From Thermoflexus sp. (lineage in GTDB: Bacteria; Chloroflexota; Dehalococcoidia; Tepidiformales; Tepidiformaceae): DNA of 30,412 nt. The notes beneath the pieces are model-generated. The model was not told the origin of the DNA and ran no database searches. It was given only the letters and a program-made list of their open reading frames with translations. This document shows positions 320 to 12,410 of the stretch, in pieces; the first letter of the stretch is position 1; the number at the start of each line of letters is the position of its first letter. The position numbers were made by a program, and so were the translations under genes. Location: contig JBBIVC010000001.1 in the NCBI GenBank assembly GCA_037439905.1, forward strand, positions 1-30,412, written 5' to 3'.

Positions 320-2134
320 ATGGCACTCGGCGGTTACGCGGGACGAGTCGGCAACGTCGACCTCACCACCGGCACAGTCGACTACAGGCCCATTCCCGAG
401 GAGTGGGCGCGCAAGTACATCGGCGCGCGGGGCGTCGGTGTCCGCTACGTCTACGAAGCTGGCCCCACGATCGACCCGCTGAGCGGCGAGAACGTGCTCT
501 GCTTCATGAACGGGCCCCTCACCGGCAGCGAAGCAAGCATGAGCGGCCGCATCGCCGTCGTCACCAAGAGCCCCCTCACGGGCACCGTCACCGATAGCCA
601 CATGGGCGGCTGGAGCGCTGCCCGGTTGCGCTGGGCCGGGTTCGATGGTCTCGTCTTCAAAGGCAAGTCCTCCAAACCCGTCTACGCCTTCGTTTCGAAC
701 AACACTGTCGAACTGCGCGATGCCTCGGACCTCTGGGGCAAGGGCGTCCACGAGACCGTCAGGCTCCTCAAGGAGCGCCACGGCGCCGATGACCTGAGCG
801 TCATGGCCATCGGCCCGGCGGGCGAGAACCTCGTCCGGTTCGCCTCGTGGATCAACGAGAACGACCGCGCCTCCGGACGCGGCGGCACTGGCTGCGTCGG
901 CGGCTCGAAGATGCTCAAGGCCGTTGTCATCAAGGCCGCCCGCAACTACCCCCGCGCGGCCGACCGCGACGCGTGGCGCACAGCCCACTCCAACGCCCTC
1001 AAGAAGATCATGGACGAGGCGAACATCACCTCTCCCAAGAAGGGCGGCCTCTCCGTCTACGGCACCAATATGCTCATGAACGTGAGCAACACCATCGGCG
1101 GCCTGGGCGCCCGCAACAGCCAGGACACCTCCTTCGAGCATGCCGAGCTCCTCGGCGGCGAGTACGTCAAGGAGCACTACCTCATCGACGACCCGACCTG
1201 CCACGCCTGCCCGGTCGCCTGTAAGAAGGAAGTCGAAATCAAGGAAGGCCCCTACAAGGTCAAGATGGAATCCGTCGAGTACGAGCCTGCCTGGTCGCTC
1301 GGCGCCAATTGCGGCAACGACGACATCGCCTCCGTCGCCTACATGATCGACATGGCGAACGACCTCGGCTACGACGCGATTGAGATCGGCCAGGTCTGCT
1401 CCATGGTGATGGAGGCCACCCAGCGCGAGTACATCCCGGCGAGCGTTGGCATCGTCTGGGGTGATAAGGACCGGATGATCGAGGTCGCCCGCCTCATCAC
1501 CTACCGCCAGGGCATCGGCGACCAGCTCGCCAACGGCATCGACTCGTTCGCGAAATCGATCGGCCACCCGGAGATCGCCATGACGGTGAAGGGCCAGGCC
1601 ACCCCGGCCTACGACCCGCGCGGCTTCAAGGGCATGGGGCTCGGCTACGCCACCTCCAACCGCGGCGCCTGCCACCTCCGCGGCTACAGCCCCGCCAGCG
1701 AGCTCGGCGTCATCGGCCTCAAGACCGACCCGCTGGCCTACCAGGGCAAGGGCGAGCTCCTCAAGCTCCTCCAGGACATCCATGCCTTCTCCGATAGCCT
1801 GGACCTCTGCAAGTTCAGCGCCTTCGCCGAAGGCCCCGACGAATACGCCGAGCAGTACCGCGTGATGACCGGCATCGAGAAGTTCGACGCCGACGACGTC
1901 CTCCGCACCGGCGAGCGCATCTACAACCTCGAACGCCACTACAACAACCTGGCGGGCTTCCGCGAAGGCTCCGACTACCTCCCGAAGCGCTTCACCGAGG
2001 AACCCTCGAACGCGAAGGGCTCCCTCGGCCAGGTCTGCGAACTGAACGCGATGCTCGAGGAGTACTACCGCGTCCGCGGCTGGAAGAACGGCGTTGTGCC
2101 GGAGGAGAAGCTGAAGGAACTCGAAATCGTCTGA
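320..2134 (+). CDS. aor: Aldehyde:ferredoxin oxidoreductase (W/Mo-pterin, AOR family)
   Basis: 604 aa; AOR N-terminus (GRVGNVDLTTG, KSPLTG, GGWSAARLRWAGFDG), GRGGTGCVGGSKMLKAV, CHACPVAC 4Fe-4S ligands, GMGLGYATSNRGACHL, DSLDLCKF, EYYRVRGW. Confidence 0.93.
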   Translation: MALGGYAGRVGNVDLTTGTVDYRPIPEEWARKYIGARGVGVRYVYEAGPTIDPLSGENVLCFMNGPLTGSEASMSGRIAVVTKSPLTGTVTDSHMGGWSAARLRWAGFDGLVFKGKSSKPVYAFVSNNTVELRDASDLWGKGVHETVRLLKERHGADDLSVMAIGPAGENLVRFASWINENDRASGRGGTGCVGGSKMLKAVVIKAARNYPRAADRDAWRTAHSNALKKIMDEANITSPKKGGLSVYGTNMLMNVSNTIGGLGARNSQDTSFEHAELLGGEYVKEHYLIDDPTCHACPVACKKEVEIKEGPYKVKMESVEYEPAWSLGANCGNDDIASVAYMIDMANDLGYDAIEIGQVCSMVMEATQREYIPASVGIVWGDKDRMIEVARLITYRQGIGDQLANGIDSFAKSIGHPEIAMTVKGQATPAYDPRGFKGMGLGYATSNRGACHLRGYSPASELGVIGLKTDPLAYQGKGELLKLLQDIHAFSDSLDLCKFSAFAEGPDEYAEQYRVMTGIEKFDADDVLRTGERIYNLERHYNNLAGFREGSDYLPKRFTEEPSNAKGSLGQVCELNAMLEEYYRVRGWKNGVVPEEKLKELEIV

Positions 2135-4561: not shown

Positions 4562-5786
4562 GCGGTGTGCCAAGCGAAGCGCAGACCCCGCGCAGCAGCC
4601 CGATGACCCTCCCCAGCAACACCAGGTCCCCCGGGATCGCCTCCACCGGGTTCGCCCGCATGGCGCCCCGCCGCTCGGCAATCTCGCTCTCCGCTGGCCG
4701 GTCGATCGGCCGCGCATCGAACATCAGCTGCATCAGCGGCAGCACATCTCCCGGCGATTCCGACTTCACCTTCACGCCCAGCTCGCGGAACGCCTCGACG
4801 ATGCCGTGCGGGTCGCGGTCGCCGGCAGCGACGACGAGCTTTGCGAACCCCAGCCGGGCCCGCTCCGGGAGCTCCTTCGTGAGTCCGAAGTCGAGCAGCC
4901 CGGCGCGGCCGCCCGGCAACACCAGGATGTTGCCCGGGTGCGGGTCGGCCTGGAACAGCCCGTCGACCATGATCTGGTGGCCGTAGGCCTCGGCCACCGT
5001 CCTGGCGAACGCGACCCGGTCGATGTTCATCGATGCGAGCCGTTCGCGGTCGAGCAGCCGCGCCCCGTGGATGTACTCGGTAACGATGACCTTCCGTGCC
5101 ACGTGGTCGTCGATCACCTGCGGCACCACCACACCCGGCACCCCGCGCAGGTTCTCCCGGATGCGCCGCGTCATCTCCGCCTCGCGCTCGAAATCGAGCT
5201 CCAGCGGCACCTGGCTGGCGATCTCATTCACCACCGCCCGGAAGTCGAAGTTCGGCTCGCGGCGGGCCACAATCCCCACGATGGTCCGCAGGTTGCGGAT
5301 ATCCAGGCGCACCAGCCCCGCTACCTCGGGGTACTGCACCTTCACCACCACCTCGCGCCCGTCAGGGAGCGTGGCCCGATGCACCTGCGCGAGCGAAGCC
5401 GAGCCGATCGGACGCTCATCGAAGGTCGCGAACAGCTCTTCGATGGGGCGCTTCAGCTCGCTCTCGATGGTCTGGCGCACCACCGCCATCGGCCGCGCCG
5501 GGACCTGGTCCTGCAGCCGCGAAAGCGAACGGCTGTACGGCTCTGGCACGACGTCGGTCCGCGTGCCGATGAACTGCCCCGACTTGATGTACAGGCCTTT
5601 CAGGTCGACAGCCAGGCGGTAGAGCGATTCGGCGGCCGCCTCGTGGCGGCGCTCCCAGTGCCCGGCAGCCACCTCGGGCGGCAGCTTCCGCACGGCGCGC
5701 TGCGTGCGCTTGTACCCGAGGTAGATCCGCGCGCCGGTGCGGGCCACGCGAAGGCTGCGGCGAAAGCGTTTGGCGTGTTCGAACAT
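4476..5786 (-). CDS. ABC1/AarF/UbiB family atypical kinase
   Basis: LKGLYIKSGQFIGTR, LSRLQDQVP, PIGSASLAQVHRA, VVVKVQYP, QADPHPGNI, LLDFG; start MFEHAK at 5786. Confidence 0.9.
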   Translation of the reverse strand: MFEHAKRFRRSLRVARTGARIYLGYKRTQRAVRKLPPEVAAGHWERRHEAAAESLYRLAVDLKGLYIKSGQFIGTRTDVVPEPYSRSLSRLQDQVPARPMAVVRQTIESELKRPIEELFATFDERPIGSASLAQVHRATLPDGREVVVKVQYPEVAGLVRLDIRNLRTIVGIVARREPNFDFRAVVNEIASQVPLELDFEREAEMTRRIRENLRGVPGVVVPQVIDDHVARKVIVTEYIHGARLLDRERLASMNIDRVAFARTVAEAYGHQIMVDGLFQADPHPGNILVLPGGRAGLLDFGLTKELPERARLGFAKLVVAAGDRDPHGIVEAFRELGVKVKSESPGDVLPLMQLMFDARPIDRPAESEIAERRGAMRANPVEAIPGDLVLLGRVIGLLRGVCASLGTPLSPMQMLRPFAERALEEAGATPGAAAAS

Positions 5787-5931
5787 GATTCGGGGTCCCG
5801 TCCGCGCCCAGTGTGCCCGCAGCGGGCGCCGCCCCGCAACAAAAGTGAAGCCGTCTTCCCGAAAAACGCGTCGCAATTTGCCGGGCCCGTCTGGCATGCT
5901 GTTTGCAGCAGCAACTACTGGCAGGCCTCCT

Positions 5932-6462
5932 GTGCACACCCTCCGCATCTCCCATCCCGCCATCTCCGGGCGCAACGCCCAGGCCACCATCGACTTCTAT
6001 ACCGGCGTCCTGGGCATGGAGCTCGTCCTCCGCCAGCCCAATCTCGATTACGAGCCCGAGGAGCACCTCTTCTTCCACGCCGGCAACGACAACTTCATCG
6101 CCTACTTCGTCCCCAGGCCCGGCGTCGACCCGGCGAGCTACCCCGAGGCCCAGGGCGGCTCCGGCCACATGGACCACGTCGCCCTCGATGTCCGCCTGGC
6201 CGACCTTCCCGCCTGGGAAGCTCGCCTCCGCGAGGCGGGCATCGATTACGAGGGGCCCATCGACCGCGGTTACGAGCGTTCGCTCTACTTCAAGGACCCC
6301 AACAACGTGACCGTGGAGCTGCTCGCGTGGATCACCGAGCCCCCGGCCGGCATGCCGCAGGCAGCCATCATCAAGCGCGCCCAGGCGATCCGCGAGGCCC
6401 GCGGCGCAGCGTTCATCGAAGACCGCGACGTCCGCCAGGCCATCGCCGAACTGTCCCGTTAG
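5932..6462 (+). CDS. VOC/glyoxalase family protein
   Basis: ISHPAI..TIDFYTGVLGM, MDHVALDV, RSLYFKDPNNVTVELL; start may be GTG 5932 or ATG 5896. Confidence 0.8.
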   Translation: MHTLRISHPAISGRNAQATIDFYTGVLGMELVLRQPNLDYEPEEHLFFHAGNDNFIAYFVPRPGVDPASYPEAQGGSGHMDHVALDVRLADLPAWEARLREAGIDYEGPIDRGYERSLYFKDPNNVTVELLAWITEPPAGMPQAAIIKRAQAIREARGAAFIEDRDVRQAIAELSR

Positions 6463-6735
6463 AACCCAACCCGGCCGTGGGGAGTTGAAGCTGCCGGGCC
6501 GTTTGGTCCCTGGTTGGGAAACCGTCCCGATGCCCAACCCTGGCGGCCCAACGCATCTAGCCCGGCCCGCGTTCCCACCCTCCACCTCTCCCTCCCAACC
6601 GGGAACCCACCCCGGAGCCAAACGCACCGCTGGCCATCGGCCGAATCTGCGCCGGGCCGTTTCCCAACACCCCAACCGGTCCATCAGCATCATCAACCTT
6701 CCTTCATTCCCCGGTATCTGTTCAGATGGATGGAG

Positions 6736-9555: not shown

Positions 9556-9801
9556 TCAGCCGCCTCCGCGCATCGTCCGCCGCCGGAGATAGGCCGCCAC
9601 CTCCGCCTCCCGCTCTCCGGAAACTACGAGAAACAGCACCGGGATCACCATGCGCCCCAGGCGGGCCGGCTCGCCTTGCACGAACTCCACCTGCCACCCA
9701 TCAGCGGTGACTCGCGCACCCTCGGCCACTCCACCCAGCTCCCGCAGCAGGTCGCGCCGGATCTCCTCCGCGGGGAGGTTCCGGACCTCCAGCCGGGTCA
9801 T
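9556..9801 (-). CDS. Small protein (81 aa) ending in MRGGG, probably DUF1952-like
   Basis: MTRLEVRNLPAEEIRRDLLRELGG...GWQVEFVQGEPARLGRMVIPVLFLVVSGEREAEVAAYLRRRTMRGGG; start overlaps the MoaD-like stop (ATGA). DUF1952 resemblance is from memory, not searched. Confidence 0.65.
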   Translation of the reverse strand: MTRLEVRNLPAEEIRRDLLRELGGVAEGARVTADGWQVEFVQGEPARLGRMVIPVLFLVVSGEREAEVAAYLRRRTMRGGG

Positions 9802-10073
9802 CCGCCGGCGGCCGGGGGAAAGATGTCGACATCCGCATCCGGCGGCACCGGGGTCTCGAGCATCTGCAGGTGCCGGATCTCCCGGCCGTCGACGAACACC
9901 TTGATGTATTCGCCCAGGGTGCCCTCGGCCGTCCAGATCATCGCCCCCAGCTCCGGGAACCGCTCCGTCACGGTGTCCAGCAGGTCCTTCACCGTCGCGT
10001 CCTCGGCCAGGTCCAGGTGGACGTTCTTGCCGCCCACGAGCGGCCGCAGCGTCGCGTAGAAGCGGACATCCAT
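9798..10073 (-). CDS. MoaD/ThiS (SAMP1-like) ubiquitin-fold sulfur carrier
   Basis: VRFYATLR, TVKDLL, VFVDGREI, DVDIFPPAAGG C-terminal di-glycine. Confidence 0.9.
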   Translation of the reverse strand: MDVRFYATLRPLVGGKNVHLDLAEDATVKDLLDTVTERFPELGAMIWTAEGTLGEYIKVFVDGREIRHLQMLETPVPPDADVDIFPPAAGG

Positions 10074-10186
10074 TGGTGGATCGTAGCAGGCCCGCGAGCG
10101 GCGGGTCGCGCCCGGTTACCGAGACACCACCGCGCCGATCGCGCATGCTTTGCGCCAACAAAACCCACCATCGTCCGCGAGGCCAC

Positions 10187-10690
10187 ATGCATCTCATCCT
10201 GAACGACCTCACCCCCTGGCATTGGGCGGCCGGCGGCGCCGTCATCAGCGCGGTCACCCTCACCCTCCTGTTCGTCGGCAACCGCCGGCTCGGCGTTTCG
10301 ACCGGCTTCGAGAACGTCTGCTCGCTCGTCGTGCAGACTCCCTACTTCCAGCGCGAGGCGCTGCGCGGCACGAACTCGTGGCGGCTGCCGTTGCTCGGTG
10401 GGCTTGTTGCCGGCGGGTTCCTCTCCGCTGTCCTCGGCGGCGGTTGGGAGCCGTTCTGGGACCTGGGCATGTTCGATGCCGAGATCGGCTGGGGGAACGG
10501 CGGCAAGCTCCTCTGGATGTTCGGTGGCGGGCTGCTCATCGGGTTCGGCACACGGCTGGCAGGGGGCTGCACCAGCGGCCACGGCATCTTCGGCATGTCC
10601 AACCTCGAACTGCCGAGCATCGTCTCCACCGTCAGCTTCATGGCCGCCGGGGCCGTCACCACCAACCTCATCTACCGCGTCATCGTCTAA
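10187..10690 (+). CDS. YeeE/YedE sulfur-compound transporter, N-half type
   Basis: LGVSTG, FGGGLLIGFGTRLAGGCTSGHGIFG signature; start MHLILN at 10187. Confidence 0.88.
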   Translation: MHLILNDLTPWHWAAGGAVISAVTLTLLFVGNRRLGVSTGFENVCSLVVQTPYFQREALRGTNSWRLPLLGGLVAGGFLSAVLGGGWEPFWDLGMFDAEIGWGNGGKLLWMFGGGLLIGFGTRLAGGCTSGHGIFGMSNLELPSIVSTVSFMAAGAVTTNLIYRVIV

Positions 10691-10703
10691 CAGGGGCACC
10701 GCC

Positions 10704-11150
10704 GTGATTCTCTTCTACCTCGTCCTCGGTTCCGTCTTCGGGTTCGCGCTCAGCCGTTCGGGCGCCGCCGATTACAACTTCATCCAGGGCATGTTCCTGT
10801 TCGAGGAGTTCCAGCTGTACGGCATCATCGGCACCGCGGTCGCGCTCACCGCCCCATCGCTGTGGGTGCTCAAGCGCTACGGCCGGTCGCTCACCGGGCA
10901 GCCGCTGCGCATCGAGAACAAGCCGGGCCACCGGGGCAACATCTACGGGGGCATCCTCTTCGGCATTGGCTGGTCGATCACCGGCATGTGCCCGGGCCCC
11001 ATCCTGGTCAACATCGGCGAAGGCAAGGTGTACGCCCTTGCGGCGCTGGCCGGCACGCTCGTTGGCGCGGGGGCGTTTGGCGCGCTCTACCCCCGCCTGG
11101 TCAAGCCGTTCGGGCTCCCGCCGCTCCAGGTCGGCACCGGCGAGGGATAA
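10704..11150 (+). CDS. YeeE/YedE family protein, C-half type (partner of the upstream gene)
   Basis: GSVFGFALSRSG, GGILFGIGWSITGMCPGP signature; GTG start at 10704, 13 nt after the upstream stop. Confidence 0.85.
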   Translation: MILFYLVLGSVFGFALSRSGAADYNFIQGMFLFEEFQLYGIIGTAVALTAPSLWVLKRYGRSLTGQPLRIENKPGHRGNIYGGILFGIGWSITGMCPGPILVNIGEGKVYALAALAGTLVGAGAFGALYPRLVKPFGLPPLQVGTGEG

Positions 11151-11151
11151 C
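11110..11151 (+). repeat. 42-bp direct repeat, copy 1 (3' end of the yeeE-like gene including its stop)
   Basis: TCGGGCTCCCGCCGCTCCAGGTCGGCACCGGCGAGGGATAAC, identical to 12369-12410. Confidence 0.95.
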
Positions 11152-11172: not shown

Positions 11173-12147
11173 CTACGGGCCGGGCGAGCCCACGACCTTG
11201 AGCACGACGTTGCCGGTCTTCTGCCCACCGGAGACGTATCGGACCGCGGCAACGATGTCGTCGAGCTCGTACTCCCTGTCGATGACTGGCCGGTACAGGC
11301 CTGCGTCGATGAGGCCGCTCACGAGCAGCAAGTCCTCCTGGCGGTAACGGCCGAGGCCCAGTGCCGCACGCTTCGAGCGGGTGAGCCGGGTGAGCACGGC
11401 GAGCAGCGGCACGTGGTACATGAACCCAAGGTCGACAGTGATATAGACGCCGCCCGGCTTCAGCGCCCGCCGGCAGCGCCGGAACGAGTGCTTCCCCACG
11501 GCGTCGAACACGACGTCGAATTTCCGCGGTCCTTCCGTGAAGTCCTCGCGAAAGCGGTCAACCACACGATTCGGCCCCAGCGCCTCCACTACGCCGGCGT
11601 CTCTGCCGTCGCAGACCGCGGTCACGTCAGCCCCGAAATGGTGCGCCAGCAGCTGCACCGCGGCGCTGCCGATGGAACCCGCGGCGCCGTAGACAACCAC
11701 ATCCTTGCCATGAAGTGGATACCCCGGTTGCAGACATGTGAGCGCCAGCAGCGCTCCATCCGGCACCGCGGCTGCCTCGGCGAACGTCAGTCCCGCCGGC
11801 TTCCGCGCGATCACTCCTCCTTCGCGGACAGCCACGTACTCGGCGTTCGCTCCGGGCTGCCAGCCGAATACCTCGTCGCCGGCCTGGAAGCGCGTCACTG
11901 CCGCGCCGGCTTCCTCCACGATCCCGGAGAACTCCGAACCCGTGGACGGTCGCCTCGGCCGGCGAATACCCGTGAACAGGCGTGTGAAGCGGTACTCGGT
12001 GCCGGCCACACCCATCGCGTCGCCCCGTGTCACCGTCGAGGCGTGCACCCGCACCAGCACCTCGTCCGCTCGTGGCACCGGCCGCTCGACCTCGGCGATT
12101 CGGAGCACCTCCGGCGGTCCGTAGCGATCCTGGACCACAGCTCTCAT
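11173..12147 (-). CDS. MDR-superfamily NAD(P)-dependent oxidoreductase (quinone-oxidoreductase/ADH-like)
   Basis: MRAVVQDRYGPPEVL, VLVRVHAS, FQAGDEVFG, GANAEYV, VVVYGAAGSIG, FDVVFDAVG, GQKTGNVVL; no catalytic-zinc Cys/His pattern seen. Confidence 0.9.
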   Translation of the reverse strand: MRAVVQDRYGPPEVLRIAEVERPVPRADEVLVRVHASTVTRGDAMGVAGTEYRFTRLFTGIRRPRRPSTGSEFSGIVEEAGAAVTRFQAGDEVFGWQPGANAEYVAVREGGVIARKPAGLTFAEAAAVPDGALLALTCLQPGYPLHGKDVVVYGAAGSIGSAAVQLLAHHFGADVTAVCDGRDAGVVEALGPNRVVDRFREDFTEGPRKFDVVFDAVGKHSFRRCRRALKPGGVYITVDLGFMYHVPLLAVLTRLTRSKRAALGLGRYRQEDLLLVSGLIDAGLYRPVIDREYELDDIVAAVRYVSGGQKTGNVVLKVVGSPGP

Positions 12148-12368
12148 CGAGGGACTCCCTTTCGCGCCGTGGCGCACAGTTTCGAGACGCGCGCAGTCTG
12201 ACCCACCGCTCGTTTCCGCGGATCCGCCATTCGGGCAGGTCGCCACCCCAACCTGGAGCGGCGGAAACCAGGCCCGGGGTTCGGCGGGGGCCGGGCCCCT
12301 TCAGCCCTGGCGGGCCACGGCAAGGAGAGCGGGGCCGTGCCGGGCGCATGCGGCGAGTTGCGACTCCA

Positions 12369-12410
12369 TCGGGCTCCCGCCGCTCCAGGTCGGCACCGGC
12401 GAGGGATAAC
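12369..12410 (+). repeat. 42-bp direct repeat, copy 2 (non-coding)
   Basis: Identical to 11110-11151. Confidence 0.95.

Follow-up and report, generated by a model that had tools for sequence, protein, structure and literature searches.

Tungsten enzymes of the aldehyde:ferredoxin oxidoreductase (AOR) family attract interest as biocatalysts and for the reduction of acids, and the maturation of their cofactor site is poorly understood. MoaD genes linked to AOR genes were proposed to act in dedicated tungsten (W)-cofactor synthesis, with Thermus thermophilus among the organisms listed (Iyer, Burroughs and Aravind, 2006; PMC1779556). Such a role has been assumed since 2006, and a mechanism for it is lacking. 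With aorDE of Aromatoleum aromaticum, the specific activity of recombinant AOR rose from 4.5 to 16 U/mg (PMC9295118), and in Thermococcus kodakarensis the deletion of the AOR-adjacent Ubl left AOR activity at about 54% and abolished FOR activity (PMC11323500). The locus described here lies in a 30,412-nucleotide stretch of the Thermoflexus sp. assembly GCA_037439905.1 (contig JBBIVC010000001.1, positions 1 to 30,412; the whole stretch is called the window below). It has a tungsten-type AOR gene and, convergent with it, two overlapping small genes, P0002 and P0001, both with products ending in Gly-Gly. P0002 is MoaD-like, and P0001 belongs to the domain family DUF1952, which Pfam now names MoaD_arch with no function attached. 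On balance the evidence leans, though not heavily, towards the two being accessory proteins of one AOR clade, in which DUF1952 would serve as an AOR-docking adaptor, and possibly a plug, for the MoaD-like carrier. New here are the exact junction between the split and the fused form of the pair, the tie of the pair to a single AOR clade, the loss of DUF1952 in some members, and a predicted, comparatively supported docking on the AOR.

Both small genes are on the minus strand. P0002 (9798-10073, 91 aa, C-terminus FPPAAGG) encodes a beta-grasp protein of the MoaD/SAMP1 type and is followed by P0001 (9556-9801, 81 aa, C-terminus RRRTMRGGG), the stop codon of the first overlapping the start codon of the second in the ATGA at 9798-9801. 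They are real genes: the third-position GC pattern fits coding, homologues form 26 close clusters and about 60 at greater distance, and the fold is predicted with confidence. P0002 exceeds the cut-offs of the hidden Markov models (HMMs) for Pfam ThiS (PF02597; 46.9 bits, cut-off 22.5), NCBIfam SAMP1 (NF041918; 85.1 bits, cut-off 60) and NCBIfam moaD_arch (TIGR01687; 51.6 bits, cut-off 49.5). Its best solved match is 1V8C, a Thermus protein, at residues 3-87 (E 5.8e-15), where the C-terminus of P0002 aligns with FPPVAGG, ending at residue 87 inside that chain. The C-terminal motif P-P-x-A/G-G-G is kept in 25 P0002 orthologues, G90 and G91 being invariant. By HMM score and by its exact C-terminal Gly-Gly, P0002 is a predicted sulfur carrier of the ThiS/MoaD family.

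P0001 reaches 14.8 bits against DUF1952/MoaD_arch (PF09189), below the gathering score of 22; in the precomputed Pfam column of the protein database, P0001 and all 26 of its close homologues are tagged PF09189.16. A phmmer search of solved structures gave the C-terminal domain of 1V8C as the best match (E 0.013). The AlphaFold (AF2) model, with a predicted local distance difference test (pLDDT) score of 91.5, has a beta-alpha-beta(4-5)-alpha secondary structure. Foldseek aligned it with 1v8c_A at a template-modelling (TM) score of 0.75 and a root-mean-square deviation (rmsd) of 1.4 A, and VIA-align placed its residues 1-78 on residues 88-165 of 1V8C (Z 13.3, rmsd 1.1 A, 77 residues). The structural neighbours after 1V8C, the next at Z 9.3, are TATA-binding protein (TBP)-like domains of RNase H3 and phosphoglucomutase. 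P0001 is a DUF1952 (MoaD_arch) protein, and its modelled fold is TBP-like, not ubiquitin-like or beta-grasp.

Since P0002 covers residues 3-87 of 1V8C, P0001 covers residues 88-165, and the Thermus chain and P0001 both end in RGGG, the pair in the window corresponds to the Thermus 'MoaD related protein' in split form, with the junction exactly after the Gly-Gly. When 1.84 billion representative proteins were searched with a profile, 62 clusters of the P0001 family were recovered at E <= 1e-3, nearly all of 78-90 aa and with the match extending to the last residue. The same search returned no fusion of the Thermus type at that threshold, and a word-indexed search of longer proteins with P0001 and P0002 found no fused forms, both of which are weak evidence; a tblastn search of the plasmid collection gave no Thermus match. 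One candidate fused form, P0089, was rejected as a frameshifted artefact. DUF1952 is rare: a sample of 301 Chloroflexota genomes has it in 15, with a solid hit in 14. No account of the domain was found in the literature, where 1V8C turns up only as a seed for beta-grasp searches.

In the 26 close homologues of P0001 (54-86% identity, 81-83 aa) the end TMRGGG is invariant and the start MTRLEVRN is conserved. Among 95 family members the tail is RGGG in 74 and RAGG in 16; RTGG, GGGG and RGGA are found once each, and two sequences are truncated. RAGA tails occur in three genomes, all of one genus. The rule, as read from the sequences, is that the chain closes with an Arg and three small residues, the last two of which are nearly always Gly-Gly. 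A preliminary description of the locus had reported two coupled small genes with the ATGA overlap and Gly-Gly ends, had doubted that the 81-aa product is a beta-grasp protein, had guessed at DUF1952, and had proposed the conservation of the terminal glycines as a check. The two open reading frames (ORFs) are as it described them, Foldseek and VIA-align place the 81-aa protein among TBP-like folds, the guess was right by the fold match to 1V8C, though the Pfam hit is sub-threshold, and the terminal glycines are almost invariant.

That description had also suggested that the DUF1952 protein may be a carrier or modifier in its own right, without the ubiquitin fold. On this view it would be adenylated by the ThiF/MoeB-type E1, thiocarboxylated or conjugated to lysine, and would act in tandem with the MoaD-like protein in supplying tungsten-pterin sulfur. 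The near-invariant R-[G/A]-G-G at the exact C-terminus indeed resembles the LRGG of ubiquitin, the partner is always a genuine MoaD-type carrier, the RGGG of DUF1952 is the sole free C-terminus in the Thermus fusion, and the one ThiF-type E1 of the genome presumably serves several carriers. The TBP-like fold, however, is without the surface by which known carriers bind E1, no E1 recurs in the 23 diverse neighbourhoods described below, and the RAGA (three genomes of one genus) and RGGA (one cluster) tails end in Ala. We know of no carrier that tolerates a terminal Ala. The AOR interface predicted for DUF1952 moreover accounts for both the tail and the conserved N-terminal strand. An E1-activated carrier role for P0001 is now less likely, and we consider it improbable.

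Gene neighbourhoods were surveyed in 33 loci from species-representative genomes and metagenomes. In each of the 32 loci having upstream DNA, DUF1952 is preceded at a spacing of -4 to +11 nt by a MoaD-like gene, whose product ends in PPxAGG or similar. The AOR gene is downstream and convergent, at most 213 bp away in 13 loci and 1.8 kb away in one; in the window's own clade it is 3.6-7.3 kb from the pair. When ORFs within 6 kb were clustered across 23 diverse loci, the MoaD-like, DUF1952 and AOR families were the sole recurrent ones; E1, MoaE, JAMM and YeeE were not recurrent within this distance, and one locus has a ThiF gene 4 kb from the pair. Six distant DUF1952 members (profile E 1e-5 to 1e-3) all adjoin single-subunit AORs, not AorABC operons, and five of them have ThiS, DUF1952 and a convergent AOR together. 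The exception (L048) has no MoaD-like gene, DUF1952 standing alone beside a divergent AOR.

Divergent from the pair, across a spacer of 113 bp, the window has two YeeE/YedE-type halves on the plus strand: half 1 (10187-10690, 167 aa, motif GCTSGHG; PF04143, 50.5 bits) and half 2 (DUF6691; 10704-11150, 148 aa, GTG start at 10704, motif GMCPGP; PF20398, 42.9 bits, and PF04143, 41.6 bits). The head-to-head arrangement and both motifs are present as previously reported, and a sulfur-uptake relay could be read from them, in which YeeE would import thiosulfate or sulfur and pass it to the Gly-Gly proteins. The spacing, the conserved Cys motifs in both halves and the persistence of the arrangement in eight close relatives (L001 and L017-L023) fit such a relay. 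These eight are near-syntenic with the window over the whole region, so that they are not independent evidence, and the halves are absent from 23 of the 23 more diverse loci. The YeeE/YedE halves are lineage-specific neighbours outside the conserved module; the survey largely refutes the relay, which can hardly be credited. Of the expected linkage to aor, moaD and yeeE elsewhere, moaD and AOR recur, and yeeE is confined to the window's close clade.

The window AOR (320-2134, plus strand, 604 aa) has its ATG at 320 preceded by AAAGGAG and is convergent with the pair at a distance of about 7.4 kb, six unrelated genes intervening (PIG-L deacetylase, M48 peptidase, ABC1 kinase, glyoxalase, Obg and carboxylesterase). 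It matches AFOR_N and AFOR_C (PF02730 and PF01314; E 2.4e-74 and 4.9e-124) and keeps the Fe-S ligands C294, C297, C301 and C497 (CxxCxxxC...C) and the catalytic H452. The closest solved structure is 9Q1T, WOR83 of Haloferax volcanii (664 bits), other archaeal and bacterial AOR structures scoring about 410-460 bits. His452 aligns with His448 of PfAOR and His464 of AorB, a residue with hydrogen bonds to the oxo ligand of the tungsten and to the substrate (PMC10413684).

AOR is found in 126 of the 301 genomes of the phylum sample, often as four to six paralogues each (the tally includes the unpublished genome G038, on which no other claim rests), and in 14 of the 14 solid DUF1952-positive genomes. 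In a maximum-likelihood tree the 15 pair-linked AORs, the window's included, make up one clade (100/100), and the remaining paralogues from these genomes are spread over three other clades. The window AOR is therefore the cognate enzyme of the pair, which does not serve AORs generally; a general W-cofactor synthesis for all AORs was rejected as an explanation, the link being limited to one clade. The earlier proposal that the second protein feeds W-pterin synthesis for the AOR in the window is borne out by neighbourhood, tree and co-occurrence as far as the tie to this enzyme goes, in the narrower form of a link to one AOR orthologue group. With the window AOR as query, an orthologue at >=66% identity was found in 20 of the 301 genomes, 13 of them with DUF1952, and the AOR tree has DUF1952 ancestral to the clade and lost about three times.

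The complex of AOR and DUF1952 was predicted from alignments made for this analysis and without cofactors, together with three controls. The interaction prediction score from aligned errors (ipSAE) was 0.86 (runs 0.85-0.88), and the best of the three controls had 0.00; in calibration, 58 of 80 solved complexes reached the ipSAE mark, as against 2 of 110 mismatched pairs, figures that are approximate for runs with such alignments. The runs share at least 91% of contacts, and the pLDDT of the partner is at least 88. To our knowledge no complex of this kind has been solved, so that the score is unlikely to reflect a structure already known to the predictor. On DUF1952 the predicted interface takes in residues 4-9, 17, 46-55 and 73-81, of which the segments 4-9, 46-55 and 73-81 are the most conserved of the protein and include the N-terminal strand and the tail. 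On the AOR it takes in 234-258 (domain 2), 452-468, 479-488, 498-507, 524 and 528; Thr249 is invariant in all aligned AOR paralogues, residues 498-507 come directly after Cys497, the fourth Fe-S ligand, and the catalytic His452 is among the predicted contacts. Because a partner touching His452 must reach inside, the tail would enter the channel as far as this residue.

On the expectation that AORs which lost DUF1952 would drift at its docking surface, a comparative test was made over AOR columns 240-604, counting as changed those columns in which at least four of eight orthologues from DUF1952-less genomes have a residue absent from 24 DUF1952-linked orthologues. Changed columns make up 9 of 35 at the predicted interface and 9 of 330 elsewhere (Fisher p = 6.5e-6); by a Mann-Whitney test p = 1e-4, or 4e-4 when restricted to columns conserved among the linked orthologues. 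The top two changed columns, 258 and 505, are both at the interface, and no AOR column perfectly separates DUF1952-linked from DUF1952-less orthologues. Two pairs of positions co-vary, on the strength of one or two substitution events: Lys468 of the AOR with Glu5 of DUF1952, both changing together in L050 and L090, and Gly466 with Asn8, Pro466 being accompanied by Gly, Ala or Ser at position 8. DUF1952 is predicted to bind the AOR at this surface; the model supports such binding rather than showing it, and the comparison supports it independently.

The same interface is compatible with the main rival explanation, in which DUF1952 would stay on the mature AOR as a small, stable subunit or gate with no role in cofactor biosynthesis and the MoaD-like protein would be separate. 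As such it could cap the substrate channel and regulate access, act as a pseudo-substrate block, or, the lineages being largely aerobic, protect the tungsten site from oxygen, to which it is sensitive. The predicted contacts, in domains 2 and 3, surround the catalytic His and the stretch that follows the fourth Fe-S cysteine, DUF1952 goes with a single AOR clade and is missing from the other paralogues of those genomes, and the docking surface diverges upon its loss, all of which suits a subunit. The strict coupling to a MoaD-type carrier, which in Thermus amounts to fusion, points instead to a part in the chemistry of sulfur or the cofactor; no such subunit is present in solved AORs, among them the closest one, 9Q1T, with its one chain; and DUF1952 has been lost in about a third of the orthologue-bearing genomes. 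We hold a purely structural or gating role to be rather unlikely, though it is the alternative to be taken most seriously.

AORs interconvert carboxylates and aldehydes, and for this reason the tail of DUF1952 might itself be a substrate. It would set its C-terminal carboxylate beside the tungsten, as perhaps would the MoaD-like tail, and serve as a protein substrate or pseudo-substrate of the AOR, being reduced or sulfurated or delivering thiocarboxylate sulfur to the metal. We give this very little credence.

The favoured reading, that of an adaptor, can be drawn as follows. DUF1952 would dock in the cleft that separates domains 2 and 3 of the AOR. Its N-terminal strand (L4-L9, invariant) would pair with AOR segment 462-468, and the flexible, likewise invariant R-G-G-G tail would thread into the AOR to the catalytic His452. 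The small Gly residues would let the tail fit a narrow channel, and no E1 activation site would be required. Because in Thermus the MoaD-like domain joins directly onto the DUF1952 N-terminus, DUF1952 would act as an adaptor, possibly a removable plug, that keeps the MoaD-like carrier at the entrance of the AOR active site, and P0002 and P0001 may form a heterodimer. Judging from published work on AOR-linked MoaD genes, the arrangement could serve to mature the tungsten-pterin site, whether sulfur is delivered or the cofactor inserted, or else to protect that site by capping it.

Several points weigh against this reading. The last block of the tail has a pLDDT of 36 in the monomer model of P0001, and the contact list of a cofactor-free model is the sole source for the reach of the tail to His452. 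The divergence of the interface goes back to no more than about three losses, and rapid evolution is in any case usual in surface loops. In six distinct loci there is no AOR within 8-10 kb of the pair. Seven of the 20 orthologue-bearing genomes, plus one with an orthologue at 57% identity, are without DUF1952, which is dispensable for this AOR clade. All eight keep a MoaD-like gene convergent with the AOR, three of them having two tandem MoaD-like genes, and for this reason the MoaD-like protein is the constant partner and DUF1952 a frequent but dispensable one. If the Thermus fusion stays uncleaved, the Gly-Gly of its MoaD domain could not be activated, a poor fit with a classical sulfur carrier. 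The literature holds no experiment on any DUF1952 protein.

As to carriers elsewhere in the genome, a canonical moaD adjoining moaE is found on another contig, and P0002 is therefore an extra paralogue. Other genes of ThiS type stand beside a threonine-synthase-like gene, beside a CysM-like gene with a ThiS-ThiF fusion, and beside a molybdenum hydroxylase gene. The single ThiF-type E1 of the genome (L009, contig C33) is fused behind a ThiS-like domain, and by it P0002 would be thiocarboxylated. This E1 is flanked by the CysM-like gene and a ThiS-like gene ending in GGC, an arrangement like that of CysO-CysM cysteine synthesis. No JAMM (Prok-JAB) protease scored above the cut-off, which in an 84%-complete genome is no evidence of absence. 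The MoaD-like partners of two distant DUF1952 members (L049:6723-7004 and L050:2167-2448) end in GGGK and GGGQ, one residue past the Gly run, so that C-terminal trimming would be needed to expose their Gly-Gly.

Some further observations concern single loci. In L091, L092 and L096 (genomes G043, G067 and G193) two tandem overlapping MoaD-like genes replace DUF1952, and the AOR loop 462-468 is rebuilt (AEVVGNVLGPSTV). The AOR gene beside the DUF1952 pair in L038 (7343-9169) has one in-frame stop codon, for which a sequencing error, decay to a pseudogene or recoding could account. In L048 the 730-aa AOR was suspected of carrying a fused MoaD domain, and the suspicion was rejected, there being no such domain. 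In L090 a radical-SAM/SPASM gene (5422-6675) lies divergently upstream of the triad of MoaD-like, DUF1952 and AOR genes, a setting reminiscent of Thermococcus, where a radical-SAM gene adjoins those for AOR and UblC.

The host genome is a Chloroflexota metagenome-assembled genome (MAG) of 2.48 Mb in 387 contigs, 84% complete. The window has about 69% GC and is chromosomal, and its nearest relatives are Tepidiformaceae and Dehalococcoidia MAGs. An Rfam scan of the window gave no family above threshold, the molybdenum/tungsten cofactor (Moco/Wco) riboswitch included. An exact 42-bp direct repeat (11110-11151 and 12369-12410), which is the 3' end of the gene for the second YeeE half, flanks an inverted alcohol dehydrogenase gene of the medium-chain dehydrogenase/reductase (MDR) type (11173-12246). 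In the syntenic relative L001 this gene and a GDT1 gene are missing at the matching place, and the segment between the repeats therefore looks inserted.

With these results DUF1952, a domain whose structure has been an orphan for 20 years, gains a concrete and testable proposed role as a clade-specific AOR-binding adaptor. If this role is true, a terminal Gly-Gly outside the ubiquitin fold would mark a channel-threading tail and not an E1 substrate, and the action of the MoaD-like carrier would seem to extend beyond pterin synthesis to the enzyme once assembled. In practice, active recombinant AORs of this clade may need co-expression of the pair.

Among known systems the nearest is 1V8C of T. 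thermophilus HB8 (168 aa), in which both modules occur, ordered as in the window, and which ends in RGGG. It differs from the window in having both modules in one polypeptide with the Gly-Gly internal, whereas the window has two coupled genes, each product with a free Gly tail, and the DUF1952 parts of 1V8C and P0001 are only about 23-29% identical. 1V8C is a structural-genomics entry for which no published function was found. The 'tungsten cofactor' class of MoaD, AorD/AorE and UblC (TK1065) likewise have a MoaD/SAMP1-type gene beside AOR and apart from moaD-moaE; descriptions of AOR-linked MoaD proteins cover the beta-grasp proteins, and in them the DUF1952 partner, its tail and its docking were not found described. 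Haloarchaeal and some Chloroflexota loci have a second ThiS-like gene in the place of DUF1952.

P0002 also scores above the equivalog cut-off of SAMP1 of Haloferax volcanii, and on haloarchaeal plasmids a SAMP1-like gene is convergent with AOR, as in the DUF1952 loci; the protein conjugation of SAMP1 (sampylation) is not known from bacterial members. A further likeness is to MoaD-MoaE, the molybdopterin (MPT) synthase, in which the Gly-Gly tail of MoaD threads into the active site of its partner. It shares with the pair the order of carrier then partner, the overlapping stop and start, and occasional fusion, fused MoaD-MoaE forms having been noted (PMC1779556). MoaE and DUF1952 have no similarity, the latter being a TBP-like protein of 81 aa with a Gly tail of its own, and the pocket that would receive a tail is predicted in the AOR, not in DUF1952.

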